Positions 13,332-47,562 of a stretch of 64,000 nt of DNA are shown here, one piece after another; position 1 is the stretch's first letter; each line of letters begins with the position of its first letter. The stretch is from an uncultured Clostridia bacterium (lineage in GTDB: Bacteria > Bacillota > Clostridia > Christensenellales > UBA1242), in NCBI GenBank assembly GCA_944381145.1, contig CALWJZ010000003.1, positions 6,616 through 70,615 of the forward strand, in the 5' to 3' direction. The notes under the pieces are model-generated. The model was given only the letters and a program-made list of their open reading frames with translations, searched no databases and was not told the DNA's origin. The position numbers and the translations under genes were made by a program.

Positions 13332-15664
<2,333 letters not shown>

Positions 15665-25228: not shown

Positions 25229-25230
25229 AA

Positions 25231-31463: not shown

Positions 31464-31500
31464 AAAAAACAAAAAAGGAGCACTTAAATCAAGTACCCCC
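31464..31500 (-). terminator. rho-independent terminator closing the phage-like operon
   Basis: Minus sense GGGGUACUU-GAUUU-AAGUGCUCC (9 bp including 2 G.U), followed by UUUUUUGUUUUUU. Confidence 0.7.
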
Positions 31501-31507
31501 ATAATTA

Positions 31508-31753
31508 TTATTCTTTATTTTGCTTATCAATTTCATCAAGCAATTCATCACTTGACGACTCATTTTTATCTTCAACATTTTTTTTCGTAATAATACCAAG
31601 CATTACTAATGCAGAGCAAATTGAAAGAATTATTGATTCCACTTCTTTTGAATAGAGATTAAGTCCTATTATATTTGAAATAGTTTCAAGAACTATTACT
31701 ATAGCACCACTCAATCCTAACCAAAATGAAGTCGTTCTAAGTTTGTTTTTCAT
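31508..31753 (-). CDS. phage holin (Phage_holin_1 / phi-LC3-like)
   Basis: 81 aa. KNKLRTTSFWLGLSGAIVIVLETISNIIGL...LSICSALVMLGIITKK gives two TM segments and an acidic tail, the pattern of the LC3/SPP1-type holin family. Confidence 0.6.
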   Translation of the reverse strand: MKNKLRTTSFWLGLSGAIVIVLETISNIIGLNLYSKEVESIILSICSALVMLGIITKKNVEDKNESSSDELLDEIDKQNKE

Positions 31754-31991
31754 TCAAGTTTTCCTTAGTTTTATTTATTTTTATTTTTTTTGAATTTAAT
31801 TCTTTTTTTATATCTTCAACATCTTCTTTTATTAGTTTAACTATTTCTAATGAATTGCCCAGCTTCTCAATTGTTGATTGATATTTTTGTTCTCTTGTTC
31901 TACTATCTTTTAATTGATAAATCAATAGACCTAAAAACAATACAGCAAATAATCCATTGCTTATTGCCAAATTTATTATTTGTTCCCACAT
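31737..31991 (-). CDS. BhlA/UviB-family holin-like protein
   Basis: 84 aa. SNGLFAVLFLGLLIYQLKDSRTREQKYQSTIEKL...IKEDVEDIKKEL matches the G.FA.LF..LL.Y.LK....RE.KY core and the coiled tail of UviB/BhlA. Confidence 0.65.
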   Translation of the reverse strand: MWEQIINLAISNGLFAVLFLGLLIYQLKDSRTREQKYQSTIEKLGNSLEIVKLIKEDVEDIKKELNSKKIKINKTKENLNEKQT

Positions 31992-32737
31992 ACATTTAGC
32001 CTATCTATCAAATTATTATAGTTATCACCAATTAAGTCTTTTATATTTTCACTGGACCCCATAACTTCCAAAATTTGTTTGTTTGGAACCATATCTAAAT
32101 TTGTAGTAATTAAATAAAATAACTTATTTTCAATATAATAATTTATAACTTCCTTGTTATATTTTTTATTCAGAAAATCTAAATTTAAATTATTCAATAA
32201 ATTATCAAAAATTATATCTTTTAGCAAAGAATTATAATTTAAAATAAATTCATTTTCTTTTTCAAAAATAGTTTTGTTCAAATCTTTTAAATTTAAATTT
32301 ATTTTATTTATTTCAATTTCAAGTTTAGATATTTCATTACAAATTTTTACAGTTTTAGAAATATTAAATTCATTTAGAAAATGCTGTTTTAGTGATAATA
32401 AATAATTTTTTTTAAAATTTAATTGTTCTAATGATTCGTGAATCTGATTATCAAATTTCAAATATTCATCATAAGAAGAATTATCAAAAGCTTTTTTATT
32501 AGTAATAACAATACGATTTAGTTCACCTAAATTAGCATCTCTTTCATTATTTTGTAAGACATTTTTTAGATTTTTATATTGTTTTTCATCAAATTCACTT
32601 TTAGAAAAAATATTATGTAAATCGCAAATATTTATTAGTTCTTTTTCCAAAAATTTTTTTAAGCTTTTTTTATTTTCCGAATTAATAGTATGAACCATTT
32701 TTTCGTTAAATTCATTATCAAATGTATAATTATTCAT
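31976..32737 (-). CDS. hypothetical coiled-coil protein (phage-like operon)
   Basis: GGAG lies 5 nt before ATG 32737 (MNNYTFDNEF). The track's 29-codon upstream extension is rejected. N/K/E-rich, heptad-like sequence. Confidence 0.5.
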   Translation of the reverse strand: MNNYTFDNEFNEKMVHTINSENKKSLKKFLEKELINICDLHNIFSKSEFDEKQYKNLKNVLQNNERDANLGELNRIVITNKKAFDNSSYDEYLKFDNQIHESLEQLNFKKNYLLSLKQHFLNEFNISKTVKICNEISKLEIEINKINLNLKDLNKTIFEKENEFILNYNSLLKDIIFDNLLNNLNLDFLNKKYNKEVINYYIENKLFYLITTNLDMVPNKQILEVMGSSENIKDLIGDNYNNLIDRLNVCGNK

Positions 32738-32798
32738 ACTTTCTCCTCTTGCTTTTGTATAATTTAAATTATACTTAATAATCCTAATCAATATATCA

Positions 32799-33896
32799 TC
32801 ATAAACTATCATCACTAACCACATTACAGTTTAAATTGTTGTATAACAAATAATAATCATCTACTTTAATAACATCATTTATATTCCATAAATTTTTTGG
32901 TGTTTCAATTTGTTCTAAAGTATTATTCAAGTCATTAAAACTATACTTAGTTATATTAACCATATAATCATCTATAGAATATACTTCAATATTTTTAGAA
33001 TCAATAAATAATCGAGATAATTCGCTATTTACTGTTAAAATCAAATCCCAGTTATTATTATATAAAACAAATATAGACATTGTTCCATCATCAAAATTTA
33101 CGCCAAAACAAGGTTTATCAAAATATCCATTTACTTCCATTACTGCAAAAGTTTTCGGCATAGCTTTTTCAGGAGTAGATATAGAATATTCTTGACTTAA
33201 ATTATAATTAGCATCTAAAATTTTATAGTATAAATTATCATTTTTAATATAAACAAAATATAATTTATTTTCATTTGCAACTGGCACAATTTGTGCATTT
33301 TCAGAATCACTAGACACAAAAACACTGCTTGTATAATTATTTAAACTTGTGTAAAAATATACGCCATTATTGTAAGTTAAATAACCTAAATAATCATCAT
33401 TATTCATAATGAATGATTGACAATCAATTACATTTGATAAATTGAATAAAACAGTTAAATTATTATTAACAATATCATCTCTTGATGAATAAGATAAAAA
33501 TTCAATATTACCCCTATCTTTAACAATACATTTTTGATTTGGAATAATTTTAGTATAAAATTTATTTTTTATAGTAGCACCCAAAATTGAAATTGATAAA
33601 TTATCGCAACTTCCAATAATTTTCAAGTTAAAATCACCTTCAAAAACGCAAGGTATAATTTTATTTTCACTTCCATTAAATGAAGCAATTTTAAAGCTAT
33701 TATAAAACAACTCGAGATTAATAGCATTTTTTATATCAACATAAATATAACCATAACTAATATAATCTAAAGAATAAAAACTTATAATTTTTTCAGTATT
33801 AATTTTATCAAAAGTAATTTTTGATAACTTATTTGATTTATTGTCTAGCAACTTATATTTATTTATATTTTCAACAAAGTTATCTATCATAAACAC
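32799..33896 (-). CDS. hypothetical beta-rich protein (candidate tail/receptor-binding component)
   Basis: 365 aa. Start is GTG 33896 or ATG 33890; overlaps the upstream ORF. Call is by position only. Confidence 0.45.
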   Translation of the reverse strand: MFMIDNFVENINKYKLLDNKSNKLSKITFDKINTEKIISFYSLDYISYGYIYVDIKNAINLELFYNSFKIASFNGSENKIIPCVFEGDFNLKIIGSCDNLSISILGATIKNKFYTKIIPNQKCIVKDRGNIEFLSYSSRDDIVNNNLTVLFNLSNVIDCQSFIMNNDDYLGYLTYNNGVYFYTSLNNYTSSVFVSSDSENAQIVPVANENKLYFVYIKNDNLYYKILDANYNLSQEYSISTPEKAMPKTFAVMEVNGYFDKPCFGVNFDDGTMSIFVLYNNNWDLILTVNSELSRLFIDSKNIEVYSIDDYMVNITKYSFNDLNNTLEQIETPKNLWNINDVIKVDDYYLLYNNLNCNVVSDDSL

Positions 33897-35391
33897 CTAC
33901 AGTCAAAGTTGGATTAGTAATATAACAATTATTTTGTTCAGTTTCAAAGCCAAAACCAAATAAATTTGCCTTTTCATTAATTTTAATTTTTTGAATTTTA
34001 TTTTTGCCTTTAATATTAAATATTTTTACTTTGTCATCTAAATATATTTTTAGTTTAATATCTGATTTTGTAATAAATTTAATATCTTTGATAAACTTTA
34101 CTTTTCCTGGATAACCCAAATCACTCATTTTACTAACCCAAAATTTACCCAACGGATTTTGTTTGATATTTCCAGAAATATTTACAATACCACATGTCGG
34201 CAAATCAACATTCATTTTATAAGTTGCAATCATAAAATTATTATACTGATCCTTAACAACTACAAATTGTCTAACATCTAAGCCTCTAAAAATTGAATAT
34301 TTATAAGTTTTAACATCTATTTTAACAAATGCATTATTTTGAACGGTTGATAAATTTTCGCATAAAAATTTAGTATTATCTCCAAAATCAACTTTAAATG
34401 ATAAATAGTAAATACCATCAAGATATCCTGCAGTATAATAATCTGTATCCTTTTGTCCAATCATATTGTCAAATTCAAAAGGAATCTTTTTAGCGTTATT
34501 ACCATCAAACTCATATATACCATCGCTTGCCAAAAACATTATTTTATCGTCACAAACACACACTGTATTATAATAAATTCTACTGTTGCAAACATTTAAT
34601 TGCTCAACTTCAAAATTCTTTTTGTCTGTACCTTTTACAATTTTTGCAATATTGAAATCTCTAATAACATATAATTCATCTTTAAATACTATGACTTTGT
34701 TGCATTTTCCATAAATTTCATATGGAATATCAATATAGCCACTTTCATCTTTATTTAATTTAAAATTTAAAGGATTGAATTCTTGACTATATAAAATTGA
34801 CTGTTTGTCTAATTCAAATGTTGCAAAATTTCTGTTATTATAAATACACATATCTGTGATACGATAAGTATTATTTACATAATTAGCATTCTCCGACCTT
34901 GGAGACCACATATACATGCCTGTACCAGAATTACTAAATAAGAAATTATCCTTACCTTGAATTTTTGTTATCATCATATTTGGCATATAAGAGTATTCAA
35001 TATTTCCAATTTCAATAAATTCTGAATTATTTGAATTAAAAATATTATAATAAAATTTATTATTTGACGCATGAAAAATATAATACGAAGAGTAACTTTT
35101 TGTTACTGCATTCCAACATCTTGAAAAAAAACAAGATCTTGCATATGAATAATTTGGTAAGACAAGTGTTTTAGTATACAATTCTGATTCATTGCCATAT
35201 TGTACTTCAATATCCGAAATTCCAATACCATCTTTTAGAACACCCGACGAAAAATCAAAATTATACACACTTTCACAGGTTCCAAAAGGTAAATTACTAT
35301 TAGTTTTTTTTATCATTCCTTCATCAAATGATATTGCTTTTATTTCTTTAAATTTTAAAATATCTTTGTCTAAATAATTATTGTATATCAT
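33880..35391 (-). CDS. hypothetical beta-rich protein (candidate tail hub/nozzle-like component)
   Basis: About 503 aa. AAGGTGG lies 5 nt before ATG 35391, which overlaps the upstream TAA (TAATG). No family recognised. Confidence 0.45.
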   Translation of the reverse strand: MIYNNYLDKDILKFKEIKAISFDEGMIKKTNSNLPFGTCESVYNFDFSSGVLKDGIGISDIEVQYGNESELYTKTLVLPNYSYARSCFFSRCWNAVTKSYSSYYIFHASNNKFYYNIFNSNNSEFIEIGNIEYSYMPNMMITKIQGKDNFLFSNSGTGMYMWSPRSENANYVNNTYRITDMCIYNNRNFATFELDKQSILYSQEFNPLNFKLNKDESGYIDIPYEIYGKCNKVIVFKDELYVIRDFNIAKIVKGTDKKNFEVEQLNVCNSRIYYNTVCVCDDKIMFLASDGIYEFDGNNAKKIPFEFDNMIGQKDTDYYTAGYLDGIYYLSFKVDFGDNTKFLCENLSTVQNNAFVKIDVKTYKYSIFRGLDVRQFVVVKDQYNNFMIATYKMNVDLPTCGIVNISGNIKQNPLGKFWVSKMSDLGYPGKVKFIKDIKFITKSDIKLKIYLDDKVKIFNIKGKNKIQKIKINEKANLFGFGFETEQNNCYITNPTLTVGVYDR

Positions 35392-35966
35392 TATAACCAC
35401 CTTTTTGATGGCATATTAATATTCCTTTTTGGCCTAGACATAGCAAACAAAGTATCCTTAAATCTTTTGTCCCAAGAATACGCTTCGTCAATATTACCTT
35501 TCAAAAACAAATATTCTCCAACTACACCTTGAGCAAATAATAATGAATTCAATTTTAAATAATAATTAATATCACTTTCTAAATTTACAGGATCAGGCAA
35601 ATAAGAATATTCGATTTTTACTTTGGAATAATTTATATGTACTCCATCACTTAATACTTTGAAAGGAATTTTAAAATTATTGTCATCATAAACATTTTTT
35701 ATTTCTACTATATTTTTATTAGAAATATTAGAAAAAGGAACTATATTGTTTTGAACTTCAACATTAATACAATCAATTAATTCAAAATATATAGATGCTA
35801 TTAAATTATTTGTCATATTAACAGCAATAAGTAAAGTATTTAATTTTTCAGAAACATCTTCAGTAATTTCTTGAGATTCACTATTTAAATATTCCAAAAC
35901 ATCACTTAGTTCTAAATATTTAGCACAATCTATAATTATATTTTTTACAATCATATTTATCTCCAT
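35391..35966 (-). CDS. hypothetical protein, possible head-tail adaptor/connector
   Basis: 191 aa, second ORF after the capsid gene. Helical N-part (IIDCAKYLELSD...LLIAVNMTNNLIASIY) resembles gp6-type connectors. Weak call. Confidence 0.35.
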   Translation of the reverse strand: MEINMIVKNIIIDCAKYLELSDVLEYLNSESQEITEDVSEKLNTLLIAVNMTNNLIASIYFELIDCINVEVQNNIVPFSNISNKNIVEIKNVYDDNNFKIPFKVLSDGVHINYSKVKIEYSYLPDPVNLESDINYYLKLNSLLFAQGVVGEYLFLKGNIDEAYSWDKRFKDTLFAMSRPKRNINMPSKRWL

Positions 35967-36334
35967 TTTGTAGAAAATGCTTTCTCATCATCTAGCTTTT
36001 TAGAAGAATTATTTGAAAAACTATAAATTTCACGTAGCATATAATCAGATTGATTTTTTACAATATCCATATTATTTTTTTCAATATTACTATTATTTCT
36101 GTCAATTTCATCGATAATATTGTCAATATTCTTAATATGAGAACTTAACAAATATTCAATAAATTTAACATCTAAAGTTTCATATGGATAAGTAAAACAA
36201 TATGAATATTTTTGATTAGAATTATGTAATTCATAGCGATTTTTATTTGTATCATACAATATAAAATAATATTCATCTATATCTTTTATTCTATTAACTA
36301 TATCAAACACATCACTTTCTACTTTTATTTTCAT
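35957..36334 (-). CDS. hypothetical protein (125 aa)
   Basis: First ORF after the capsid gene hairpin. No family recognised. Confidence 0.4.
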   Translation of the reverse strand: MKIKVESDVFDIVNRIKDIDEYYFILYDTNKNRYELHNSNQKYSYCFTYPYETLDVKFIEYLLSSHIKNIDNIIDEIDRNNSNIEKNNMDIVKNQSDYMLREIYSFSNNSSKKLDDEKAFSTKWR

Positions 36335-36358
36335 TTTTTCTCGCTATTTTAAAAAATT

Positions 36359-36384
36359 TGCTGGACAAATTACTTTGTCCAGCA
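36359..36384 (-). terminator. strong hairpin (partial terminator or mRNA stabiliser) directly after the capsid gene
   Basis: Perfect 11-bp stem TGCTGGACAAA/TTTGTCCAGCA with a 4-nt loop, 8 nt after the capsid stop. Followed on the minus sense by AAUUUUUUAAAA. Confidence 0.6.
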
Positions 36385-36392
36385 TTAATTTA

Positions 36393-37568
36393 TTAACCAT
36401 TAATTCCTGTTAGTTTAGCTTGGCTATTAGGTCTATTACATAGCAATTCAGCATATTTAACTAAAGTTGCTGTATAAATAGGATAATTATCTTTTTGTTT
36501 TATTATTTTTCCATCATTACCTTCAATCCATTCCCAATCTCCAAGTTGACACAATTCAAAATCTTTAGTTGATAATAAATACATTGTATCATCAGCAACA
36601 AATCTATCACTTACAACGGGGATACCATTATAAGATAGAGCTTTGAATCCACCTTGTAAATCCATTACATCAATGTTTCTTTTGTATGTACTAATACAAT
36701 CTTGATAAAAACGTCTTACTTTTGAAGAACAAGCAATAAAGTCAATATCTGTTCCTGCATTTTCAGATATATCGTCTATTGCAGTTTGCATAACATCTTC
36801 ACTTATAGCACCCACACTAGTTTTTGTATATGGATTTAACCATGCATTACTACTTCTGTTTAAACCATATAAATATGCACTATTCCCAAAGATTGCTCCC
36901 AAACCTGTTATTTCATTATTCAAACCTTTCAAAGATGCAATCTTATATCCATTGTAATCAATATCTGCAGGATAATTAGTGATTATTTTATTATTAGTTC
37001 TATCAATACCTTCTATATTAAACATAATTGGATATGTTGTATTATAATTATTTCCAGCAGAATTAAGAAATCTACAACCTTGATTTACTGCAAAATTTTT
37101 AATATTATCAACTGTAAATTCAACTCCCCCTTCTTCATTACTAGCAGTTACTGTTGCTAGAATACCTGAACCATCACCATACAACATTCTTCCTAAATTG
37201 AATGAACTTGATTTAATTAGACTTTCCATTTCTTCATTTAACAAATTAACAAATGCTCCAGCACTATTTTGTGAACATCTTAATGCCTTATCAGTTATTT
37301 CAAGTGTTCCATATAGATTTTTTAAAGTAATTCTAAATTGAGCATATTTTTTGTTGAATGCTTTTGGCAATTCATCATCTTCTTTACCAGCTGTTACTCC
37401 ACCAGAAATACCATAAGAAGTTGATTTTACAATTTCATTACCATAAACATTATTTGTTGTTTGTTTAATTTTTGCAAGTAATGGATTTGCACCCATATTT
37501 AATTGGTTTCCAATTACTCCTAAATACACAGTTTTCAAAGCTTGATCAGCAGTAGTTAATGTAATCAT
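36393..37568 (-). CDS. phage major capsid protein
   Basis: 391 aa, immediately after the scaffold gene, with a strong AGGAG SD. C-terminal block YNGIPVVSDRFV...MYLLSTKDFELCQLGDWEW...YTATLVKYAELLCNRPNSQAKLTGI is capsid-like. Confidence 0.65.
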   Translation of the reverse strand: MITLTTADQALKTVYLGVIGNQLNMGANPLLAKIKQTTNNVYGNEIVKSTSYGISGGVTAGKEDDELPKAFNKKYAQFRITLKNLYGTLEITDKALRCSQNSAGAFVNLLNEEMESLIKSSSFNLGRMLYGDGSGILATVTASNEEGGVEFTVDNIKNFAVNQGCRFLNSAGNNYNTTYPIMFNIEGIDRTNNKIITNYPADIDYNGYKIASLKGLNNEITGLGAIFGNSAYLYGLNRSSNAWLNPYTKTSVGAISEDVMQTAIDDISENAGTDIDFIACSSKVRRFYQDCISTYKRNIDVMDLQGGFKALSYNGIPVVSDRFVADDTMYLLSTKDFELCQLGDWEWIEGNDGKIIKQKDNYPIYTATLVKYAELLCNRPNSQAKLTGING

Positions 37569-37576
37569 ATTTTCTC

Positions 37577-38227
37577 CTAAAATTTAAACATGTTCTCCAC
37601 ATATCTACTTGCTTCTTCCAAAGTCTTAAATTTATGAGTAGAAGCAATACTTCCAGTAACACCAGAATTATTAATTGTTATTGGATTTTTTATTTCATTT
37701 AATGAAGAAACATATTCATTAATTATTTTATTTTTTATTTCATTATTTGAGTAAATAAATTTATCTAAAAATTCTGGATTTTTTGCTAATTCATCTTGTG
37801 AAATAAATTTTTTTTCTAAAACCCTTAAATAAGCTTTTTCCAATCCTTCAGGATTATTTTTTAGCATTTCGTCATTCATAATTTCAGTGGTTATATCTTC
37901 CACAAAATTATTAGCATTTGAATGCGATTTTAAAAAATCACTTATTTTATTGTTCCAGGCAAATTCTTCAGACAAATCTCCCTTTTTCATACCGGTATTT
38001 AAAATTTGAGATTGTTCATCTAATTTTTTTTCTGTTTCGCTTAACTTTTGACACTTGCGAGTAAATTCACTTTGCAACTCGTTATAAGCACTCAAAAGAG
38101 ATTCAGAATTTTTAAACTTGCCTAGTGGAGAGCCTTGCAAATTGGTTGTTCCTTCATTTTCTGTCGCTACAGGTTGAACTACTGAATTTTGAGGTTGTTC
38201 TCCAACATTTAAAAAATTTTCTTCCAT
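37577..38227 (-). CDS. phage capsid scaffolding protein (DUF4355-like)
   Basis: 216 aa, acidic and helical. GKFKNSESLLSAYNELQSEFTRKCQKL is a scaffold signature. Lies between portal and capsid. Confidence 0.65.
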   Translation of the reverse strand: MEENFLNVGEQPQNSVVQPVATENEGTTNLQGSPLGKFKNSESLLSAYNELQSEFTRKCQKLSETEKKLDEQSQILNTGMKKGDLSEEFAWNNKISDFLKSHSNANNFVEDITTEIMNDEMLKNNPEGLEKAYLRVLEKKFISQDELAKNPEFLDKFIYSNNEIKNKIINEYVSSLNEIKNPITINNSGVTGSIASTHKFKTLEEASRYVENMFKF

Positions 38228-38230
38228 ATT

Positions 38231-40129
38231 TTACTCCTTATTTTCTTTTAAACTTTCATTAGTTATCAAATTAAATTTTTTATGATTTCTAATATGATTC
38301 ATTAATTTATTTTTTAAATCTGAATTTTTTAATATTTCTTTTTGAAATTCACTTCCTAACATAAATGCTGTATGTTCAAAAATATGAATCTCATGGTCAT
38401 CAATTTCATTAGGTTCTTGTATATCTCCATCAATTATTAAGGCTAAATTTTCTTTAGTAGCAGAATTTATTTGCAACGTCCTCATATCTTGACTAACTTC
38501 CATTATACCAAATCCTAATTGTTCCAAAACCTTACTTCGCATAGTATTACTTAATTTACCATTTTCATCATTAAGTAGGCCCGAATTTAAAATGTCAAAT
38601 ATCATTGTTCTTTTTTGTGCTAAAGTTTCATTTATTTCATTTTCCGTTTCAAAAATAACTTCTTCAGAACTTATGTCACTTCCACTCCAATAAAACAACT
38701 CAATTGATCCATTGTCTCCAATAATTCTAGAGGTGTGTTGGAATTTTGCATACTGTTTATAAAGTCGCAATATTTGTTTTGCCATTTCTTTTGCACAATC
38801 TCTAATTTCATCTGCACTAGAAACCAATCTAATTTCGTCCTGTTCAATCATTAATTGAAGTGCTACACCACTTATATTTCCTGAAGATATTGTGCTTGAA
38901 TTTAATAAATCGCTAACACCGGATATATTAACAAATTCATTTAGCAAAGCTTCTTCTTCATTTTTAAAGTCTATAGGTAGCGCTTCACTAGAAAGCAATT
39001 TTGGACTAGATGCACCCTGTCTATAAATTAATACTTTGCCAGGCGATAAACCCTCTTCTTCTAAATTTTCTATATCTATAGAACCATCTTCAACAGACAA
39101 TATTCCCATAGTTAATCTATTCATAAACTCATGTTTTCTATTTTTTACAGCATTAAATGCACGTTGTATTGGTATGCATCTTTCAATAACACTTGTACCC
39201 CAAAAAGAATTAGGTGTAGGAATACTTGTTTGTCTAATAAATGGAAACCCTCTTTTTCCTTCTTCTTTATTTATATAAGGTAATTCACCATTATAAATTA
39301 ACTTATCACCAGCAATAATTATAAGTCTTCCATTAGGATATTCAATTGTAGGCTTTTCATATTTTTCAATAACAACAACTTGATCTTTTTTCAACTTTTT
39401 TGCCATTGAATTTGAAAGAGATGAATAACCCAAACCACCACTAAGAGATAAATTATCCAATGAATAAACATCTATATCTTGCCCGTCAACTTCAACTCCC
39501 CAAACATTTTTTACCATATCTTTATGAAATGTTCTAGCGTAGATGATAGACATGCAATCTTCAACCCTATTATATGTATTACTATCAGGATAAATTTCAA
39601 AAGGACTAACTACACTGATTTCAACATCTCCTTCTTTAATTGAATTACCAAGTTCATTAATACCGATAATCTTACCCAAGTTATTATTCCAATCAATCTT
39701 ATAAAAAACTGTTCCACAAATCTCACTCCACATCGTACCTTGAGTTAAAATTTTGCTTATATTTAAACTATGACTTACTGACTTTAGAATTTTTTTGCTT
39801 GTCTTTGCACAAAAAATATCCCTTTCGTCATCAGAAAATGGTACTACTGTAAGTGTAGGTCTAACTCTAGAAAGTTTTGATTGTCTCAATTCAATTAGAT
39901 TTGCTATATGGTTATATACTTCTTTTTCTTGCCAAAAATATTGTTTCCCCGTTTCCATAATTTCTCCTGCTGGAGAAATATAGCAATATTGATTACCTAA
40001 GAAAAAATTTATATTGAGTTGCCACGTATTTTCAAAACTTTTTCGTTCTTGTTGGCGTGTTTTAAAATCTTCAAGAACACTTTTTATTAAATCTTCATCA
40101 TCTAAAGAAACATCTTTTTTATTTTTCAC
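38231..40129 (-). CDS. phage portal protein
   Basis: 632 aa. N-terminal SFENTWQLNINFFLGNQY portal-like block. GTG start with GGAGG 6 nt upstream. Lies between the terminase and scaffold genes. Confidence 0.65.
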   Translation of the reverse strand: MKNKKDVSLDDEDLIKSVLEDFKTRQQERKSFENTWQLNINFFLGNQYCYISPAGEIMETGKQYFWQEKEVYNHIANLIELRQSKLSRVRPTLTVVPFSDDERDIFCAKTSKKILKSVSHSLNISKILTQGTMWSEICGTVFYKIDWNNNLGKIIGINELGNSIKEGDVEISVVSPFEIYPDSNTYNRVEDCMSIIYARTFHKDMVKNVWGVEVDGQDIDVYSLDNLSLSGGLGYSSLSNSMAKKLKKDQVVVIEKYEKPTIEYPNGRLIIIAGDKLIYNGELPYINKEEGKRGFPFIRQTSIPTPNSFWGTSVIERCIPIQRAFNAVKNRKHEFMNRLTMGILSVEDGSIDIENLEEEGLSPGKVLIYRQGASSPKLLSSEALPIDFKNEEEALLNEFVNISGVSDLLNSSTISSGNISGVALQLMIEQDEIRLVSSADEIRDCAKEMAKQILRLYKQYAKFQHTSRIIGDNGSIELFYWSGSDISSEEVIFETENEINETLAQKRTMIFDILNSGLLNDENGKLSNTMRSKVLEQLGFGIMEVSQDMRTLQINSATKENLALIIDGDIQEPNEIDDHEIHIFEHTAFMLGSEFQKEILKNSDLKNKLMNHIRNHKKFNLITNESLKENKE

Positions 40130-40352
40130 CTTTTACCTCCTTTGTTACTTTTATTTTTTTATTAAATATGTTTTCTGGACTTTTTGGAACAACAATTTTT
40201 CCTATCTCACTATATAACTCGTTAATACAACAATTGCACAAATTTAAGCCGACTGATCTGAAAAATCCTGATTTTTCTACCTTGAAATCTGCAATATTTT
40301 TACAATTAGGCATATCACATCTTACTTTTCGAACAACATTTTTTATTATCAT
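40119..40352 (-). CDS. small Cys-rich (zinc-ribbon-like) protein
   Basis: 77 aa with CDMPNC (CX4C) and CNCC. ATGA overlap with the upstream ORF. Carries the portal SD in its 3' end. Confidence 0.45.
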   Translation of the reverse strand: MIIKNVVRKVRCDMPNCKNIADFKVEKSGFFRSVGLNLCNCCINELYSEIGKIVVPKSPENIFNKKIKVTKEVKGEK

Positions 40353-40627
40353 TTTTTCTCCTTTAACTCTTTTAACAATTTTATTTTTTCATTTTCCAAT
40401 TCTTCATCTGTCATATTTGAATATTCGTTTAGTTTTTCATCCTCCTTTTCAAGTAATAATTGCAACGCAGTTAAATCGGGTGGATAAGATTTTGTGCTTG
40501 TTTTTCTTTTTTGTAAAACAAATTCATCTCCCGAATATCCATATTCTTCTATTATTTCTTGAGTTGTAAAACCCAACGCTTTGTTAATTAATGCTTTTTT
40601 TATTTTGCTGTTTTTTATTTCTCCCAT
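40349..40627 (-). CDS. small HTH-like protein, possible degenerate small terminase subunit
   Basis: 92 aa. KALGFTTQEIIEEYGYS HTH-like segment and YPPDLTALQLLLEKE, reminiscent of the PD..A...WL block of TerS proteins. It lies downstream rather than upstream of terL. Confidence 0.35.
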   Translation of the reverse strand: MGEIKNSKIKKALINKALGFTTQEIIEEYGYSGDEFVLQKRKTSTKSYPPDLTALQLLLEKEDEKLNEYSNMTDEELENEKIKLLKELKEKK

Positions 40628-40667
40628 AACTCACCTAAAAAAGTAGTTATTGTAAAACATAACTACT

Positions 40668-42125
40668 TTAATTAATTGAATATCCTTTACTCAAATATTT
40701 TTGATTTTTAATTAGTCTTTCTTTGTTTTTTTGAATAATAGTTTTTGATTTAAAATTTGTAATTTTGTTTTCTGGTCTACTCATTATATAATATCTAAGT
40801 TCATCTAAAGCATGGTCATCTTTTTTAACAGGATTATCAGAATTTCCCCAAAAATACCCCTTTATTTCACGAATTAAATTTACACAATTTTTAAATATAA
40901 ATAATTTTCTTTCGTTGCATGAATTTTTTAAATATGACTTTACTCTATTAATTCCTGAAAACAAATCTTTGTTAACATTTGTATTCGTCAAAATTCCATT
41001 ATCATAAAACAACTCCACAACGCTTTTTTCACTAGCCAAGGTTCTTTGGCTAGCGGCACTATCAATAATGGCTTCAATTCTGCCATTTTTCGTTGGCCAA
41101 TTTAAAATTTTGCATATGTCTTTAATTTTTTGTGCATGATAATCCACTGTTTTTTGTTTTTCATAATGTTCTGCGATAACATAAATATTATTATCATAAT
41201 CACAAGCATACCAATGACAACTAAGTGGATTATGAAGTCCTGGATCAATAGAAATTTTATCATACCATTCTTTAGGCACATCAAACGGCTCAATTACGTT
41301 ATAATTTTCATCAAATTCATTATATACTAAACCTGTTCCACTCGAAAAGTTTCCATATTTTCTACTATTTAATTCATCTTCGCTTAAACTTGCACTTAGC
41401 TTATTAATTTCATCTTTTGATAAATATGGATTATCTTCCCATTGCATTGTTTCATACCAAATATCATCATCATTTCTTTCATTTAAATAAATAATATTAT
41501 ATACCCAAGTTAACCCCTTTAGTGGAGTCATCGTACCATAAATATCTCCACATTTATCAAGCAATCGCATTTTGCATTCAATGTAAATATCTTCTGGGGG
41601 TTCTTCATCAAACCAAACATAATCAAGCGATGTGCCTTGAAATTTTTCTCTACCTTGATCACAACTTTTGAATCCTATTTTACTTATAGATCCGAAGACA
41701 TTCTTAACATAAATAGTATCAATAACACCTTGACTCGCACTACCTTTTTTACCAGATATCATAACAATATCTTCTATCCAATCTTTATCTAAATAATACA
41801 ATATTTTATTTTGTGCCACGTCACGCTGTACTTGTGTACTTAATGAGACTACCCAACCATCTGTCGGTTTGTTTTCTCTATAAGGATGAATTCCTCTTGC
41901 TAACCAAACTGTCTCTACTGCACCACATTCTGTTTTACCACTCCTGTTTCCTCCAAATACCCAACGATTTTTCTTTAAATTTTTATGAAATAAAAGTTGT
42001 TTTTCATGTTTAATTTCTCCTGTGTTATAATAATTTAATTTACAATCACTTTTTCTACGGCCCTGTTCTTTTTCAATTAATTTAATTTTTACTATTAATT
42101 CTCGTTTCGTCATAAAAAGCACCAT
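40668..42125 (-). CDS. terL: phage terminase large subunit
   Basis: Walker A GGNRSGKTE, Walker B LDYVWFDEEP, and a C-terminal RNase-H-like nuclease part (IDPGLHNP...DDHALDELRY). The start may be ATG 42113 (MTKREL) rather than 42125. Confidence 0.85.
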   Translation of the reverse strand: MVLFMTKRELIVKIKLIEKEQGRRKSDCKLNYYNTGEIKHEKQLLFHKNLKKNRWVFGGNRSGKTECGAVETVWLARGIHPYRENKPTDGWVVSLSTQVQRDVAQNKILYYLDKDWIEDIVMISGKKGSASQGVIDTIYVKNVFGSISKIGFKSCDQGREKFQGTSLDYVWFDEEPPEDIYIECKMRLLDKCGDIYGTMTPLKGLTWVYNIIYLNERNDDDIWYETMQWEDNPYLSKDEINKLSASLSEDELNSRKYGNFSSGTGLVYNEFDENYNVIEPFDVPKEWYDKISIDPGLHNPLSCHWYACDYDNNIYVIAEHYEKQKTVDYHAQKIKDICKILNWPTKNGRIEAIIDSAASQRTLASEKSVVELFYDNGILTNTNVNKDLFSGINRVKSYLKNSCNERKLFIFKNCVNLIREIKGYFWGNSDNPVKKDDHALDELRYYIMSRPENKITNFKSKTIIQKNKERLIKNQKYLSKGYSIN

Positions 42126-42197
42126 TTCATTTTTTTATTACAGATTTTTTTATATGTTTTACTTTCAACAATAATTAATTTAAAGTAATATTTTAGT

Positions 42198-42926
42198 ATG
42201 AAAATTATAGTTTTTATTCTTATTATTTTAATAAATTTAATCAACATAAATCATTCATTTGTATACTCAAAAAGCGAATATGCACGTGCAATTAATCCTG
42301 TTTATCTATATAACACATCAAACAATAATGAAAATTCAAATATAAAATGTATAATAGAAAAAAGTTATTTTGTTGAAATAATCTCCGAAATCAATGATTA
42401 TTACAGAGTTAATTACAATGGAACAACTGGATTTGTAAAAAAGAATGATGTAAAAGTAACAACAAGTATACCTTCTACACCATATCCTTATAATATAAAA
42501 ATTGAAATTGAGAATGACTGCAATTTAAGATCTTCTCCAACAACAAAATCAAGCATAAATAATGTTTTAGCAACTCTAAAATCAGGAGAAACCAACATCC
42601 AATTTATAGGTAGAATATTTTCAGAAGAAGCAATAGATTTTGGAGGAACAACATGGTATTATGTGAATTTTCAAGGACAATATGGATATATTTATAATAA
42701 ATATGTAAAATCTGTTTCACCAATATATGAAAATACCGAAGTTGTCAATTTTAAATCTGAAAATATTACCGATTTAACAAACCCAATAACTCACACCTCT
42801 AATATAATTTTGATTATAATATTATTTATCCCTTGCTTACTAATATTATTAATTTTGTATTATCCAAGAAAACGTAACAAAAAATCAAAATCTCATAAAA
42901 CTCCAAAACTAAATGAAAAATATTAA
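42198..42926 (+). CDS. signal-peptide / 2x SH3b / C-terminal TM-anchored surface protein
   Basis: 242 aa. N-terminal hydrophobic leader. SH3b blocks YYRVNYNGTTGFVKKNDV and CNLRSSPTT...TTWYYVNFQGQYGYIYNKYV. C-terminal IILIIILFIPCLLILLILYY followed by a basic tail. Confidence 0.65.
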   Translation: MKIIVFILIILINLININHSFVYSKSEYARAINPVYLYNTSNNNENSNIKCIIEKSYFVEIISEINDYYRVNYNGTTGFVKKNDVKVTTSIPSTPYPYNIKIEIENDCNLRSSPTTKSSINNVLATLKSGETNIQFIGRIFSEEAIDFGGTTWYYVNFQGQYGYIYNKYVKSVSPIYENTEVVNFKSENITDLTNPITHTSNIILIIILFIPCLLILLILYYPRKRNKKSKSHKTPKLNEKY

Positions 42927-43474
42927 CAAATAAAAGAATTATAAGCAAATTCAATTTGTGATATTTCGTTGAGAACTCTTTTTACAACTACTTTATCTAA
43001 AGAGTCTTCTTCTTTATTACACTTACTCAAAACCTCATCATAAACTGACAGCAACCATTTTTCAGTAGAATATTCTGTTTCAAAAAATTGCAAATCAAAT
43101 CCACATTCTATCATTTGTTCATTAAAATTTTCCAAAGCTTTCATTTTTTTCCTAAAAAAAGTCCTTATACTTACACCTAAAAATTGTGCAATTAATTCAC
43201 TTTTCACACCATCTATAAAAGCTAATCCTAAAATTCTCCTATCAGTTTTATTCAAACTACCCAAGGCTTCTTCAACTGCAATTTTTAAGTTAATCATTTT
43301 TCTTTTTCTATCTATTAATTCAATCATTTTACGCGTTTGATAATATGTCGTTTGATTTCTTTGTATATTTTGATTACTATATTTACCTGTATCCAATACT
43401 ATTTTATCTATAGTGTTAACCATTTTTTCAAGGTACCTATAAATTGATAATGCTGATTTACTCCAATATTTCAT
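42923..43474 (-). CDS. sigma-70 region-4-type HTH regulator (ArpU/RinA-like phage late activator candidate)
   Basis: 183 aa. LNKTDRRILGLAFIDGVKSELIAQFLGVSIRTFFRKKMKALENF is a region-4-like HTH. GGAGG lies 5 nt before the ATG. Located at the head of the phage-like cluster. Confidence 0.45.
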   Translation of the reverse strand: MKYWSKSALSIYRYLEKMVNTIDKIVLDTGKYSNQNIQRNQTTYYQTRKMIELIDRKRKMINLKIAVEEALGSLNKTDRRILGLAFIDGVKSELIAQFLGVSIRTFFRKKMKALENFNEQMIECGFDLQFFETEYSTEKWLLSVYDEVLSKCNKEEDSLDKVVVKRVLNEISQIEFAYNSFIC

Positions 43475-43706
43475 TCATCCCTCCAACACGTTTACTGAAT
43501 TTTTTTATAGTATAATGTATAAATTTGTCGCAAGTCAAAACTTTATGTCAAATTTTTGTAAAATTTTTAAAAATTTTGTACAATTTTGCAAGTTTTAATT
43601 ACTTGTAGTAATTAATTTTTATTAAAATGACATAAAAAAATTTTTTTAATTTATAAAAAAATCAAATAAATTACCTTTAAAACAACAAAATAAAGTATCA
43701 AAATTA

Positions 43707-43735
43707 TTGTCAAAATAATGTATGTATGCTAAAAT
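43707..43735 (+). promoter_or_regulatory. sigma-A-type promoter of the 854-aa surface-protein gene
   Basis: TTGTCA (43707-43712), 17 nt, TAAAAT (43730-43735), preceded by TGc (extended -10-like). AGGAG SD at 43745-43749. Confidence 0.6.
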
Positions 43736-43756
43736 CAAGATAATTAGGAGAACATT

Positions 43757-46321
43757 ATGAAAAAGGCAATTTTGTTTACATTTTTGTTGTTACTGAGTGT
43801 AATTTTTACGCCTTTTTTTCAAAGTTATGTATTAGCAATAGAAGATAATCAATTTCAACCAACAACAATTTATCCAGAAGAAATAATAGATTATGTAGAT
43901 TTAAACAATATATCAACATTTGCTATTAATCAAGATTACATAGTTTACACTTTAGACAAAAGTAAGTTAACTATTTATCAAATAGAAACTAGACAATTTT
44001 ATTATATAGACAATTTTAATAATATAAATAAAATTAAATTTCTTAATTCTTCAATTATTGTTGGAGATAATAACGGAATCAATGTAATTGATAATTATAT
44101 TTCTGCTAACCCACAAATCTCAAAATTAAATGAAATAAATGTGACAAACAGCAAAGCTATAGATATATATACTTCAAATAATTATATGTATATAGGTACA
44201 ATAAATAATAATACATTTAACTTGTACAAATACGAACTAAACGAAAAAGAAGTCAGTCTTATAAAATCTATTGAATCGCCCTATTTAGAAAATGCATACA
44301 TGATTGCAATTAACGATTACAATGCATATGTTGTGTACAAAACAAATAATAGTGAAAAATTCTCTACAGGTTTATGTATTTTTAATTTAAAATCAACAAA
44401 TACATCTGCAATTATCAAGGATCCTTTTAAAGTAAATGCATCAGTATTAGATACTTTTATATATAATGATGTTGAATATTTGGTAACATTTACAAATGAA
44501 AATTTATTTTTATTATCAAACGATGCAAGTGATTTAAGCAACATACACATCGCTAATGATGGCGACCTAGAAACAAATAATTTCCCAATATTTAATATTA
44601 CAGATATAAACTTTTTTGATAATAAAATTTATGTTTCTGATGTTGAATTCAAAACAATTCAAACGTTTAATATCTTAAAAACCGATAATTCAACAAATTT
44701 AATGTCAGATTCTATTATACTTGGTAGCAAAGGTTTTGACAAAGGAAGATTTGATAATGTAAATGACATTTATATTCAAGGCGACACAATTTTTACATCA
44801 GATACTGGAAATAATAGAATTCATTACTTATTAAATAATAAATCATATTTTATACAAATTGATGAAGCAAATGCAAATATTCATTCCGTAACTACAGATA
44901 AAAACAATGATATATACTTTGTCAAAAACGACTTAACAAAATCTACATTAGTAAAATATAGATTTTCTGAAAACTCCTATATTTTAGATTCACAATATTC
45001 TCAAGTAAATACCGAAAATATAGGATTTGTGTCAGATATATGTATTACAAATACAAATAATGTTTTTTTGTTAGACTACACAAATAATAATTTATTATTT
45101 TTGTCAGGGAATGGATTAGTAATCAGAAAAAATTTGCCTATTTTACTAAACAACAATAGCCAAATTGAATATATAAAATCAATTGACAAATTGATTATTT
45201 TAAATAACGAAATTTTATATTGCTTAAATACTAATGGAGAAATCATTTCTCAAAAAGAAATTATTGATACAACTTGTATAACTGTAGATTTTGATAAATT
45301 TTATGCAATAACAAATGATAAAATAATTTTACTGAAATTTGATATAAATAATAATACAATAATAGAAGAAAGAAGTATTCAAATAGAGAATTTGAGCAAT
45401 TATAAAGCTTACTGTTTTGATATTATTAATCGTAAAATGGTTTCATTTGATAAAGTAAGAAATTGTTTAGTAGAGTTTACATGTAATATAAACCAAAATC
45501 CATTTTTATTTAGCGATATCACAATAAATGAACCACTTACTGTCGAACCTTTGCCATTAAAAATTATTAATCAATCTTTAATTTACGAATATCCGTATGA
45601 ATTAGGAAACTTTTATAATACGGAAAATAATATTTCTATGTGTGTAGGAATAGAAGAATATAATGATTATTACAGAATTTTATTTGAAAATAATGACTCA
45701 TTACAATGTGGTTTTATTCCAAAAACTTCAACAGAAGTACAACCAATTATTTATAATCCAATAAAGGTTATAACTACGAATCAGATTGTCCCTGTTTATA
45801 AATACCCTACCTTGCTAACTTATAATAGCGAAAGATTAATTATTAATAATTTAAATATAAATACAAAAATTATTCTTACTTCTGTTTACCCTGTTTCACT
45901 TGATACAAAAACTTTTTATGTTTATAAAAACAATAATGAAATAGGATTTATTTTCAATGCTGATGTTGTATTAGATGAAAGCAACAATATTCAAAATTTA
46001 AATACTGAAAATGCAAAAATAAAATTAATTGGACAGGATAGTATATCATTACTAAAAGATGATAAAACAACTGAAATAATTAAATTAAAAAATAACGATA
46101 GAATTTATGTTGAAAAATATGATAAAAATAGTGAGTATACAAAAATTATATATAAAGATAAAGATTTAAATACTTATGAAGGATATATAAAAACAGAATA
46201 TATTGAAATGGACAAATTGGACAATTTCAAAATTGTTTTAATTATAATTATCATAGTATCTATAATATTGTTGGCATTGATAGTTACAACATATATAGTA
46301 ATAAAAAAGAAAAATAAATAA
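43757..46321 (+). CDS. large secreted repeat protein (beta-propeller/NHL-like), 3x SH3b-like, C-terminal TM anchor
   Basis: 854 aa. Signal peptide MKKAILFTFLLLLSVIF. One clear NHL-type DTGNNRIHYL. C-terminal SH3b-like blocks ending YEGYIKTEYIE, then IVLIIIIIVSIILLALIVTTYIVIKKKNK. Confidence 0.6.
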   Translation: MKKAILFTFLLLLSVIFTPFFQSYVLAIEDNQFQPTTIYPEEIIDYVDLNNISTFAINQDYIVYTLDKSKLTIYQIETRQFYYIDNFNNINKIKFLNSSIIVGDNNGINVIDNYISANPQISKLNEINVTNSKAIDIYTSNNYMYIGTINNNTFNLYKYELNEKEVSLIKSIESPYLENAYMIAINDYNAYVVYKTNNSEKFSTGLCIFNLKSTNTSAIIKDPFKVNASVLDTFIYNDVEYLVTFTNENLFLLSNDASDLSNIHIANDGDLETNNFPIFNITDINFFDNKIYVSDVEFKTIQTFNILKTDNSTNLMSDSIILGSKGFDKGRFDNVNDIYIQGDTIFTSDTGNNRIHYLLNNKSYFIQIDEANANIHSVTTDKNNDIYFVKNDLTKSTLVKYRFSENSYILDSQYSQVNTENIGFVSDICITNTNNVFLLDYTNNNLLFLSGNGLVIRKNLPILLNNNSQIEYIKSIDKLIILNNEILYCLNTNGEIISQKEIIDTTCITVDFDKFYAITNDKIILLKFDINNNTIIEERSIQIENLSNYKAYCFDIINRKMVSFDKVRNCLVEFTCNINQNPFLFSDITINEPLTVEPLPLKIINQSLIYEYPYELGNFYNTENNISMCVGIEEYNDYYRILFENNDSLQCGFIPKTSTEVQPIIYNPIKVITTNQIVPVYKYPTLLTYNSERLIINNLNINTKIILTSVYPVSLDTKTFYVYKNNNEIGFIFNADVVLDESNNIQNLNTENAKIKLIGQDSISLLKDDKTTEIIKLKNNDRIYVEKYDKNSEYTKIIYKDKDLNTYEGYIKTEYIEMDKLDNFKIVLIIIIIVSIILLALIVTTYIVIKKKNK

Positions 46322-46884: not shown

Positions 46885-47562
46885 TTATCTTACATAATAA
46901 TTTTCTAATTGACCTATAGATGTCATTACCGTATCTACATGATCATCATTATTTAATAGTTCAATTTTATTTAGACTAACTTCATATGCTGTTTTTGTAA
47001 CTAATGAATCATTTATTTTTTTCTGATATTCTCTACTTTGGATTCGCCCTGTAACAGTTACTTTGTCACCAACATTAAATGTTTTTACAAGTCTTGCATT
47101 TTTTCCCCAAGCAATACATGGCAAATAATCAGATTTATTATAACTTCGATTTACAGCAATTAAAATATCCGAAATTTCTCTTTTGAAAGGTGTAGTTCGA
47201 AAAACAGGTTCTTTGCAAAGATATCCTGTTATTTCAATATAATTTGGATTTTCACATTCTTCATATGGCATAATTCGATTCAAAAACACAGTTAAAATTA
47301 ATTTGCTTTTTCCATCAATTAATTTATTATAACTTCTAAATTGACCATAACCACACAATTTAGAACCATCATTTAAATCATTATCAATTAATAATTTTTC
47401 GCTAATAGTAACAGGTATAATATCAAACAAAGATGATAGTCTAGAAACTTTCAAATTAAATTCAAAAAAATTTTCCCCATAAACTTCATGACTAAATTTT
47501 GGCTCTCCTTGTATTTCTCCACATACAAAAACCTTGTTATTTTTCATTAGATTATAATCCAT
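46885..47562 (-). CDS. tandem OB-fold SSB-like protein
   Basis: 225 aa. Two SSB/PriB-like OB segments (NKVFVCGEIQGEPKFSHEVYGENFFEFNLKVSR and YIEITGYLCKEPVFRTTPFKREISDILIAVNR...VTVTGRIQSREY). No acidic SSB C-terminal tail. Confidence 0.5.
   Translation of the reverse strand: MDYNLMKNNKVFVCGEIQGEPKFSHEVYGENFFEFNLKVSRLSSLFDIIPVTISEKLLIDNDLNDGSKLCGYGQFRSYNKLIDGKSKLILTVFLNRIMPYEECENPNYIEITGYLCKEPVFRTTPFKREISDILIAVNRSYNKSDYLPCIAWGKNARLVKTFNVGDKVTVTGRIQSREYQKKINDSLVTKTAYEVSLNKIELLNNDDHVDTVMTSIGQLENYYVR

Follow-up and report, generated by a model that had tools for sequence, protein, structure and literature searches.

The locus described here raises the question of why an operon of phage-particle genes should stand intact in a bacterial chromosome with no gene for integration, replication or repression beside it. 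It lies in a stretch of 64,000 nucleotides of contig CALWJZ010000003.1 (assembly GCA_944381145.1) from an uncultured member of the Christensenellales (Clostridia), and this whole stretch is referred to below as the window. An earlier note on the same DNA had proposed a maintained particle-forming system rather than a decaying prophage and had left the choice between a system resembling a gene transfer agent (GTA), a capsid-forming island and an unusually minimal short-tailed particle. The element, ~12 kb long with genes for a phage head, DNA packaging, a short tail and holins, is a phage-derived operon with a dedicated activator that is fixed in the chromosome, vertically inherited and kept under purifying selection across a large clade. 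It descends from a short-tailed phage lineage of the Pa223/SU10/P22 kind and is without means to integrate, excise or replicate. We consider it somewhat probable that the operon encodes a host-owned, GTA-like particle (a viriform) that packages host chromosomal DNA.

A phage head, short-tail and holin operon among housekeeping genes

The window has ~25% GC and is made up of housekeeping genes, including fmt, def, priA, ligA, pcrA, dnaJ, dnaK, hrcA, lepA, rarA, murG and ddl as well as the genes for RNase P RNA, a U32 peptidase, RNase J (rnj) and topoisomerase IV (topo IV). The ORF (open reading frame) calls and the list of junctions bear out the earlier description of 13 co-directional ORFs that run on the minus strand from 42125 to 31508 with small overlaps or gaps (Table 1): neighboring ORFs overlap by 4, 11, 10, 10, 17, 26, 16 and 17 nt or are separated by gaps of 40, 3, 8 and 58 nt. 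The 26-nt overlap vanishes if the gene for the 282-amino acid (aa) distal protein is started at the ATG at 32737, which is preceded by a Shine-Dalgarno sequence and is annotated as the start in another strain. The Shine-Dalgarno sequences that had been read before the scaffold gene (AAGGAG), the capsid gene (AGGAG) and the GTG start of the portal gene (GGAGG) are present, as is the hairpin with a U-run said to terminate the unit. A further hairpin, in the gap after the capsid gene, may act as an attenuator or mRNA stabilizer and may set the ratio of capsid to tail expression. With respect to the flanks, which had been given as rnj on one side and topo IV on the other, the rnj side is correct, whereas five other genes separate topo IV from the element. 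The impression, formed by eye, that the operon matches the flanking core genes in composition agrees with the values measured, the GC content at third codon positions (GC3) being 0.156 in the operon and 0.150 in the 21 housekeeping genes that served as the reference set, with a correlation of relative synonymous codon usage of 0.98; the distal operon genes are more AT-rich overall (19-23% GC). The GC3 of the capsid gene (0.107) is the lowest among the genes measured (compare ssb, 0.111, and dnaK, 0.128), a hint that its codons are adapted to strong expression.

Operon proteins were scanned for protein families with Pfam, PHROG and NCBIfam, and most window ORFs of at least 100 aa were scanned with Pfam. 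In agreement with the earlier note, the Pfam scans of the latter revealed no integrase, CI/Cro repressor, replication gene, tape measure, sheath, tube or endolysin. Further, no att-like repeats were found in the border regions, where the only matches were low-complexity ones attributable to chance, and an Rfam search of the region from 30 to 47 kb revealed neither a riboswitch nor any other RNA family. Five genes between the capsid gene and the holin genes were without a family match, and structure and synteny were therefore used for their assignment.

The head module had been recognized before as large terminase, portal, scaffold and capsid. The large terminase (TerL), the portal and the capsid are confirmed by family matches, whereas the label "DUF4355-like" for the scaffolding protein finds no support in Pfam; this protein has no family match in either Pfam or PHROG, and we name it as a scaffold candidate only by its position and size. 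The Walker A (GGNRSGKT), Walker B (WFDEE) and TMTP motifs of TerL and its nuclease residues D294, D437 and D441 are invariant in the alignment of 61 species. For the capsid, capsid_maj_Podo was matched with 245 bits and no other capsid model in NCBIfam at E ≤ 0.1, and the AlphaFold model (predicted local distance difference test score (pLDDT), 90.9) gave the capsids of Pa223, Mic1, SU10 and HK97 as best Foldseek matches. The short protein encoded after TerL resembles the small terminase (TerS) but covers only positions 194-262 of the 319 in the phrog_309 profile, so that the N-terminal part is absent. The orthologues of this TerS-like protein match phrog_309 in 31 of 35 cases and phrog_23444 in 8 of 35, and the family alignment is well conserved; because its profile has no significant match to the TerS of the phage-like cluster in Maliibacterium (see below), the assignment is tentative. 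The 125-aa protein encoded downstream of the capsid gene is possibly a head-completion or connector protein.

The earlier note had missed the tail. Profile searches with the families of the 506-aa and 191-aa proteins against Protein Data Bank (PDB) sequences returned only noise, and a structure comparison was therefore needed. The AlphaFold model of the 506-aa protein, built on an 18-sequence alignment (pLDDT, 88.4; predicted template modeling score, 0.87), matched the Pa223 tail protein 9nwi_Y in the PDB with a Foldseek E value of 2.6e-18 and a TM score of 0.73, followed by VP1, SU10, P22 gp10 and T7 gp12, and its matches in the viral structure library BFVD carry the annotation "P22 Gp10." The protein has the beta-propeller hub fold of a podovirus nozzle, and its gene lies beside that of the adaptor candidate and downstream of the capsid gene. 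The 191-aa adaptor candidate is encoded directly upstream of the nozzle in each of the relative loci compared (the best 80; see below), is comparable in size to the Pa223 adaptor (208 aa), and its profile matches the 189-aa protein that precedes the Maliibacterium nozzle (hhalign probability, 96.4%; E 1.2e-9). No match to the nozzle was found in phages by tblastn; in BLASTP, neither the nozzle nor the 191-aa protein was significantly similar to the protein at the corresponding place in Microbacterium phage Shocker, and profile comparison of the 191-aa family with its Shocker counterpart gave no match. Because a nozzle, an adaptor candidate and the head genes are present together, the operon encodes a complete head with a short tail and not a tailless capsid. 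The GTA-like system and the minimal short-tailed particle that the earlier note had offered as separate options are thus compatible, and given the podovirus nozzle, we take both to be right.

Downstream of the nozzle, the 365-aa protein is a candidate fiber or receptor-binding protein: by word search, its homologues were found in its own species only, and the proteins at its position in 32 species share a mean identity of 14%. The 282-aa protein that follows has no Pfam match of its own, and in tblastn, it is 24-31% identical to the last structural gene product of other lineages, which is a DUF7934 protein in three loci (L004, L015 and L017) and in the Maliibacterium cluster. The operon ends with two holin genes. 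After these, in the rnj context and elsewhere, comes a gene for a 316-aa polytopic membrane protein, which also follows the holins in four loci where rnj is not adjacent (L034, L049, L056 and L078) and thus appears to belong to the element. We note that, in L027, a second polytopic membrane protein (273 aa; 14707-15528) is encoded between the holins and the 316-aa protein and that none of the post-holin ORFs viewed by eye in nine lineages looked like an endolysin.

Table 1. Genes and regulatory features of the element, in order of transcription of the operon (positions in the window)
Feature	Positions	Strand	Evidence and remarks	dN/dS
Activator regulatory region	43475..43756	-	Two palindromes and promoter; 7-lineage alignment	
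Late-gene activator, sigma-region-4/DUF1492 type, 183 aa	42923..43474	-	Sigma70_r4_2 2.3e-5, DUF1492 8e-4	0.11
Membrane-anchored SH3b protein, 242 aa	42198..42926	+	Pfam SH3_3 4.5e-9; divergent, sharing short intergenic region with TerL	0.06
Large terminase TerL (ATPase and nuclease)	40668..42125	-	Terminase_6N 4.5e-16, Terminase_6C; phrog_2 4.6e-27	0.02
Short TerS-like protein, 92 aa (tentative)	40349..40627	-	phrog_309 "terminase small subunit" 5.5e-5	0.03
Small Cys-rich protein, 77 aa	40119..40352	-	30-59% identity across many loci; no family match	0.11
Portal, P22/SU10 type, 632 aa	38231..40129	-	P22_portal 7.4e-11, SU10_portal; phrog_156 5.9e-25	0.03
Scaffolding protein candidate, 216 aa	37577..38227	-	Between portal and capsid genes; size kept in 80 loci	0.14
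Major capsid protein, HK97 fold, 391 aa	36393..37568	-	NCBIfam capsid_maj_Podo (NF033394) 7.3e-73; phrog_14242 8.5e-49	0.06
Hairpin after capsid gene	36359..36384	-	Perfect 11-bp stem in 58-nt gap; terminator-like scan match on both strands	
125-aa protein	35957..36334	-	Kept in ~40/80 loci; no family match	0.11
Head-to-tail adaptor candidate, 191 aa (187 aa from likely start)	35391..35966	-	Position, size and profile match (see text)	0.10
Tail nozzle/hub, 506 aa	33880..35400	-	AlphaFold and Foldseek	0.14
Hypervariable beta-rich distal tail protein, 365 aa	32799..33896	-		0.12 (between close species)
Helical distal protein, 282 aa (likely 253 aa, from ATG 32737)	31976..32824	-	Positional counterpart of DUF7934	
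Holin, BhlA family, 84 aa	31737..31991	-	Holin_BhlA 1.4e-15	0.05
Second holin-like protein, 81 aa	31508..31753	-	Phage_holin_1 3.9e-4, under Pfam cut-off; orthologues match too	0.06
Intrinsic terminator of operon	31464..31500	-	11-bp stem 31500-31476 and T-run	
Polytopic membrane protein, 316 aa	30390..31340	-	After holins in rnj context and elsewhere; no family match	

Descent and selection across a large clade

The distribution of the element was followed through its capsid protein, whose homologues form >100 clusters at 55-80% identity, many of them on 100-440-kb contigs of metagenome-assembled genomes (MAGs) of Clostridia. In a census of GTDB species-representative genomes, one for each species, a capsid relative is encoded in at least 583 stretches, and the best 80 of these were used for locus comparisons (labels such as L007 or L057 denote individual relative loci from these genomes). 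All of the best 80 come from uncultured gut or rumen Clostridia and, where labels are present, these read Christensenellales, Christensenellaceae, Christensenella sp. or Ca. Onthoplasma. Cluster look-ups for a cultured carrier or a Faecalibacterium homologue returned MAG labels and Maliibacterium only. The gene order is constant in the best 80 loci: the sigma-like gene and a divergent membrane protein gene are followed by those for TerL (~478 aa), proteins of ~95 and ~70 aa, the portal (~625 aa), the scaffold (~215 aa), the capsid (~390 aa), sometimes a protein of ~125 aa, a protein of ~188 aa, the nozzle (~500 aa), one or two variable proteins (the second often DUF7934) and, finally, the holins. 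One sub-lineage has an extra gene for a protein of 695-1120 aa between the TerL and TerS-like genes (L057:4623-6899, L028:3555-6917 and L026:256-2343; also in L040, L052, L063, L065, L066 and L085), which looks like an inserted surface-protein gene (a moron) because it matches Listeria-Bacteroides repeat/InlB B-repeat families.

The chromosomal position next to rnj is common to at least 19 species; lineages without this position have the element at different housekeeping sites, such as that between feoB/rluD and yabP-yqfD-phoH. The identity of TerL, portal and capsid taken together co-varies with that of RNase J (Mantel r 0.89, a value reached in 0 of 5000 permutations), with TerL and the capsid more conserved than RNase J, and element and host flanks vary together in GC content from 26 to 63% (r 0.98, 51 loci). 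The ratio of nonsynonymous to synonymous substitution rates (dN/dS), determined from the one species pair best suited to it (L007-L008; dS 0.3-1.1), is 0.02-0.14 for all 13 genes compared with 0.02-0.08 for the flanks, with similar dS. No stop codons interrupt the aligned TerL sequences (61 species) or portal sequences (75 species). The element is also intact in each of the three further strains of the window's species that were compared (~99% identical), and none of them has an empty site; what looked like a frameshift in the adaptor gene in one assembly was a run of N. Hence the comparisons that the earlier note had proposed, namely synteny of the rnj interval, dN/dS for each gene, a search for direct repeats at the borders and a search for empty sites, the last made here among strains of the species, have come out in favor of a maintained system, as it had proposed, and against a decaying prophage.

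Sequenced phages stand far from the element. The whole cluster had no DNA match in a megablast search of 50,697 phage records, and the nearest capsids of sequenced phages, which belong to actinobacterial podoviruses, are 24-28% identical. The "viral" contigs in IMG/VR with close relatives turned out to be the same element together with host flanks.

Control of the operon and its neighborhood

The earlier note had also overlooked a regulator. The 183-aa protein encoded upstream of TerL, a position that its gene keeps in nearly all loci, belongs to the sigma-region-4/DUF1492-type proteins, which activate late genes in Firmicutes phages. In addition to its Pfam matches, it has weak NCBIfam matches to SigB/F/G, ArpU and RinA models, and among its orthologues, Sigma70_r4_2 was found in 14 of 28 and DUF1492 likewise in 14 of 28. 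An alignment of the region upstream of the activator gene revealed three features that are nearly invariant in seven lineages whose proteins share only 50-65% identity: a palindrome, TAATTACT-N3-AGTAATTA, at 43596-43614 (with a spacer of N2-3 across lineages), a second palindrome of the TTTGTACAAA type, and a promoter, TTGACAtaaagtTTTGACT-N18-TATACT, at 43538-43509. The TAATTACT...AGTAATTA palindrome occurs once in the window compared with 0 copies expected by chance and is found in the same place in 11 related loci. A search of metagenome contigs for a wider TAATTACT...AGTAATTA regulon gave 120 matches, which came from unrelated environments, had none of the element or flank proteins nearby and were rejected as chance.

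Where the window has this palindrome, more distant lineages have GAAC-N4-GTTC with an AT-rich spacer, which we take to be the canonical LexA box of Gram-positive bacteria. In 903 kb from 47 loci, 19 of the 22 exact LexA boxes fall within a 1.4-kb zone upstream of the activator gene (binomial p 3e-19). Whichever gene lies on its other side, the distance from the box to the activator ORF is in every case 110-195 nt, and the box mostly abuts a TATAAT-like hexamer. From these patterns in the sequence, the family appears to be under SOS control through the activator, and the window's clade appears to have swapped the operator.

We also noted a TTTCATA-N9-11-ATTATA pattern that extends across the divergent gene's start codon in the TerL upstream regions of ~60 loci (42126-42197 in the window). 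TTTCATA occurs in 32 of 60 such regions compared with 2 expected from the coding background, and the pattern could be a promoter recognized by the sigma-like activator. A divergent gene, which encodes the SH3b protein in the window, is found here in most lineages, and its start codon lies 70-90 nt from TerL.

Several neighboring genes deserve mention in their own right. An 854-aa protein (43757-46321, plus strand) with a signal peptide and a C-terminal anchor is encoded divergently from the activator gene, and an orthologue has a faint NHL-repeat match; it shows no similarity to the 857-aa protein at the same position and in the same orientation in L042 (1404-3977) and is not counted as a part of the element. 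Close by, at 46885-47562 on the minus strand, lies a gene for a single-stranded DNA-binding protein (SSB) with two OB folds, of the PRK05813 type (9.8e-87), which adjoins the element also where rnj does not (L067, L080 and L086); this adjacency may be plain synteny or a functional link. A sigma-70 family factor of 234 aa with regions 2 and 4 (25617-26321, minus strand), encoded downstream of the U32 peptidase gene and in the same position in other strains, is probably unrelated to the element. The RNase P RNA is of class A (25230-25565, minus strand; 242.6 bits) and is the sole Rfam match in the window. Finally, the ParC/GyrA-like ORF at 48650-51484 (minus strand; 944 aa), whose start abuts the parE stop, has its topoisomerase IV domain only from residue 165 onward, which is either an N-terminal extension or an upstream mis-start.

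Proposed role of the particle and comparison with known systems

Well-characterized GTAs are few, and most are from Alphaproteobacteria. Like them, the element is a cluster of structural and packaging genes without genes for integration, lysogeny or replication, and it shows vertical descent and purifying selection. In the gut Clostridia, FpGTA of Faecalibacterium was recently described as the first podovirus-like GTA-like element, with ~40-nm capsids that contain ~8.5 kb of host DNA, and the same study reported GTA-like packaging of 4-7-kb fragments in the Christensenellaceae MAGs HGM11616 and QANA01, for which the gene cluster was left unassigned (PMC12946183, Nat Commun 2026).

We propose that a host signal, in most lineages DNA damage sensed through the LexA box, would open the promoter of the 183-aa activator; in the window's clade, another factor would bind the TAATTACT...AGTAATTA palindrome in place of LexA. 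The activator would then switch on the TerL promoter, and the 13-gene operon would be transcribed to the terminator at 31476-31500. Procapsids would be assembled on the portal from the capsid and scaffold proteins and filled with DNA, most likely that of the host chromosome, by TerL, aided by the TerS-like protein, in which the N-terminal portion of phage TerS profiles is missing. Closure of the particle and its receptor specificity would come from the adaptor candidate, the nozzle and the two fast-evolving distal proteins, and the two holins would release particles in a lysing subpopulation, perhaps with an endolysin or autolysin encoded elsewhere. A wider form of this proposal, which we regard as possible but stop short of calling probable, is that the element is an ancient GTA of the whole order Christensenellales, a podovirus-type counterpart of RcGTA that is switched on by the SOS response, through a sigma-like activator under LexA control, in most lineages, has had its input rewired from LexA to another regulator in the window's clade with the remainder of the circuit kept, and is the source of the 4-7-kb packaging seen in human fecal virus-like particles.

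Several points weigh against these proposals. Particles, their cargo and transfer are predicted from the genes of the element, and its link to the Christensenellaceae packaging events is circumstantial. A hallmark of GTAs is a head too small for their own locus, and the capsid structure here is a monomer model, which does not give the T number. No endolysin is encoded at the locus in any lineage inspected. Large ejection proteins, which Pa223 and the Maliibacterium relative possess, are absent, as are the extra tail proteins of 807 and 704 aa encoded in the latter, and DNA delivery may therefore be impaired or depend on the recipient. The TerS assignment is a tentative one drawn from weak profile matches. 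With respect to control, no LexA box was found near the element in the window, and in the lineages that have one, it lies ~80-100 nt upstream of the proximal promoter and therefore probably acts on a distal promoter; LexA control would, in addition, equally suit a bacteriocin-like killer particle.

The last point leads to the rival explanation that we take most seriously, though we think it unlikely, namely that the particle has been domesticated for a use other than transfer, as a bacteriocin-like killer (as PBSX in Bacillus) or an adsorbing decoy, with any packaged DNA incidental. Colicins, tailocins and PBSX are typically under SOS (LexA) control and released through holins, a pattern that the LexA box of most lineages and the holins of the operon fit; the absence of large ejection proteins also favors it, as do the hypervariable distal proteins, which would be expected for strain-level targeting. 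However, we know of no killing mechanism for a short non-contractile tail, and the ATPase and nuclease motifs of TerL and the TerS-like protein are conserved as strongly as the capsid, which would be needless if DNA were unimportant. The authors of PMC12946183 voice the same doubt about FpGTA, but it is in the host family of our element that they observed GTA-like packaging. The same study bears in both directions on a further, rather improbable explanation, in which a pac site in or near the fixed element would start headful packaging in situ, as in lateral transduction, and preferentially move the element with the downstream chromosome: lateral transduction was found in a Christensenellales prophage, yet the Christensenellaceae events were classed as GTA-type, with even coverage and short fragments (PMC12946183). 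Packaging in situ would fit the retention of a highly conserved TerS-like protein in an element that, having no integrase and no att sites, never excises, but this protein spans only the C-terminal part of TerS profiles, and frequent self-transfer is hard to reconcile with the strict co-divergence of element and host.

Two other explanations are effectively excluded. A phage satellite or capsid-forming island awaiting a helper phage, the remaining option of the earlier note, would account for the small size (~12 kb) and for the want of sequence-recognizable tail fibers, lysis enzymes and replication genes. It is nevertheless very improbable, given that no integrase, att site, primase or other replication module was found, that the element has its own nozzle (tail hub) and adaptor candidate, and that it is immobile, with a fixed position, vertical descent and full amelioration over 26-63% GC. 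The chance that the locus is instead the functionless remnant of a recently inactivated prophage, intact by accident, we regard as negligible: the phage origin of the genes and the gaps in the phage gene set would agree with it, but dN/dS is low in every gene, the element is intact in 80 species and in four strains of the window's species, its GC content co-varies with that of the host, and close phage relatives are absent from the 50,697 phage records.

The locus provides a concrete, searchable set of genes with relatives in several hundred or more species-level genomes from a gut lineage that is heritable and associated with health, and it is a candidate source of the Christensenellaceae packaging that was left without genes in PMC12946183. 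Ownership by the host is backed by co-divergence, by amelioration across 26-63% GC and by dN/dS values of at most 0.14. The analysis further offers a regulatory model that leads from the LexA box through the sigma-like activator to the TerL operon and in which one clade has naturally exchanged the operator. Were this model true, gene flow in these bacteria would rise directly with DNA damage in the gut (caused, for example, by antibiotics or inflammation), and many "prophage" calls for the cluster in viromes and IMG/VR would need relabeling.

Among known systems, capsid-forming phage-inducible chromosomal islands (cf-PICIs) resemble the element in being small and chromosomal and in having their own capsid, portal and terminase, but they are mobile, carry an integrase, att sites and a replication module, and are without tail genes. 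None of the traits of a functional or decayed prophage (a lysogeny module, patchy occurrence among strains, close phages or pseudogenes) was found. PBSX of Bacillus subtilis is an SOS-inducible defective prophage with a sigma-like late activator (Xpf), random 13-kb fragments of host DNA and holin-dependent lysis. It shares with the element a Firmicutes host, a sigma-like late activator and holins; unlike the element, it is a species-restricted killer particle with a myovirus-like contractile tail and its own endolysin, and traits of PBSX and tailocins (contractile sheath, tube, baseplate and tape measure) were absent from the family scans of the operon. GTAs of the RcGTA type are inherited vertically across an order-level clade, co-diverge with their hosts under purifying selection, do not move themselves and have a TerS without strong DNA specificity. 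In its vertically inherited, immobile head-tail cluster under purifying selection and in its co-divergence, RcGTA is like our element. It differs in being siphovirus-like, with a tape measure, a tail tube and a protease-processed capsid, in being controlled by CtrA/GafA and quorum sensing and in having unlinked lysis genes, and there is no sequence relationship between the two.

The best structural matches of the nozzle (TM 0.68-0.73) and capsid are in Pa223 (a Bruynoghevirus), SU10, VP1 and P22, and the portal, adaptor and hub of Pa223 are comparable in size to those of the element. These phages are, however, autonomous, with genomes of 40-77 kb, replication genes, fibers, a needle and large ejection proteins, and their sequence identity to the element is only ~10-14%. 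The nearest phage-like relative that we found is a cluster in Maliibacterium massiliense (LR026983.1, ~2.215-2.237 Mb; L144, and L136 in IMG/VR), which shares the gene order of the element: activator, TerS, TerL, portal, scaffold, capsid, proteins of 136 and 189 aa, a 477-aa nozzle and a DUF7934 protein. Its capsid is 40% identical to that of the window and its adaptor candidate is homologous, but the cluster is larger (the viral region in IMG/VR spans 34.8 kb), with a full-length TerS encoded upstream of TerL and two extra tail proteins.

The closest counterpart in kind is FpGTA, which is likewise chromosomal, podovirus-like, found in gut Clostridia and devoid of integrase and replication genes. 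FpGTA is near-ubiquitous in its host genus and has a core operon of ~10.5 kb, which includes genes for TerS, TerL, portal, capsid and tail nozzle; this TerS is said to have no DNA-binding domain. It differs in that its capsid is annotated as "N4-gp56 family" (RCH50849.1) and not as capsid_maj_Podo, in that a Prp-like protein takes the place of the 216-aa scaffold candidate between portal and capsid, and in its host order, Oscillospirales as opposed to Christensenellales. Further, the fibers, holin and endolysin of FpGTA are encoded in a second operon ~125 kb away, whereas the holins and distal proteins of the window's element are encoded in the same operon, and no endolysin was found within the 64 kb, outside which a second locus may lie. 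A literature search found no published description of the present Christensenellales element. Overall, we conclude that, by the available tests, the element is of the same kind as FpGTA but not of the same family.

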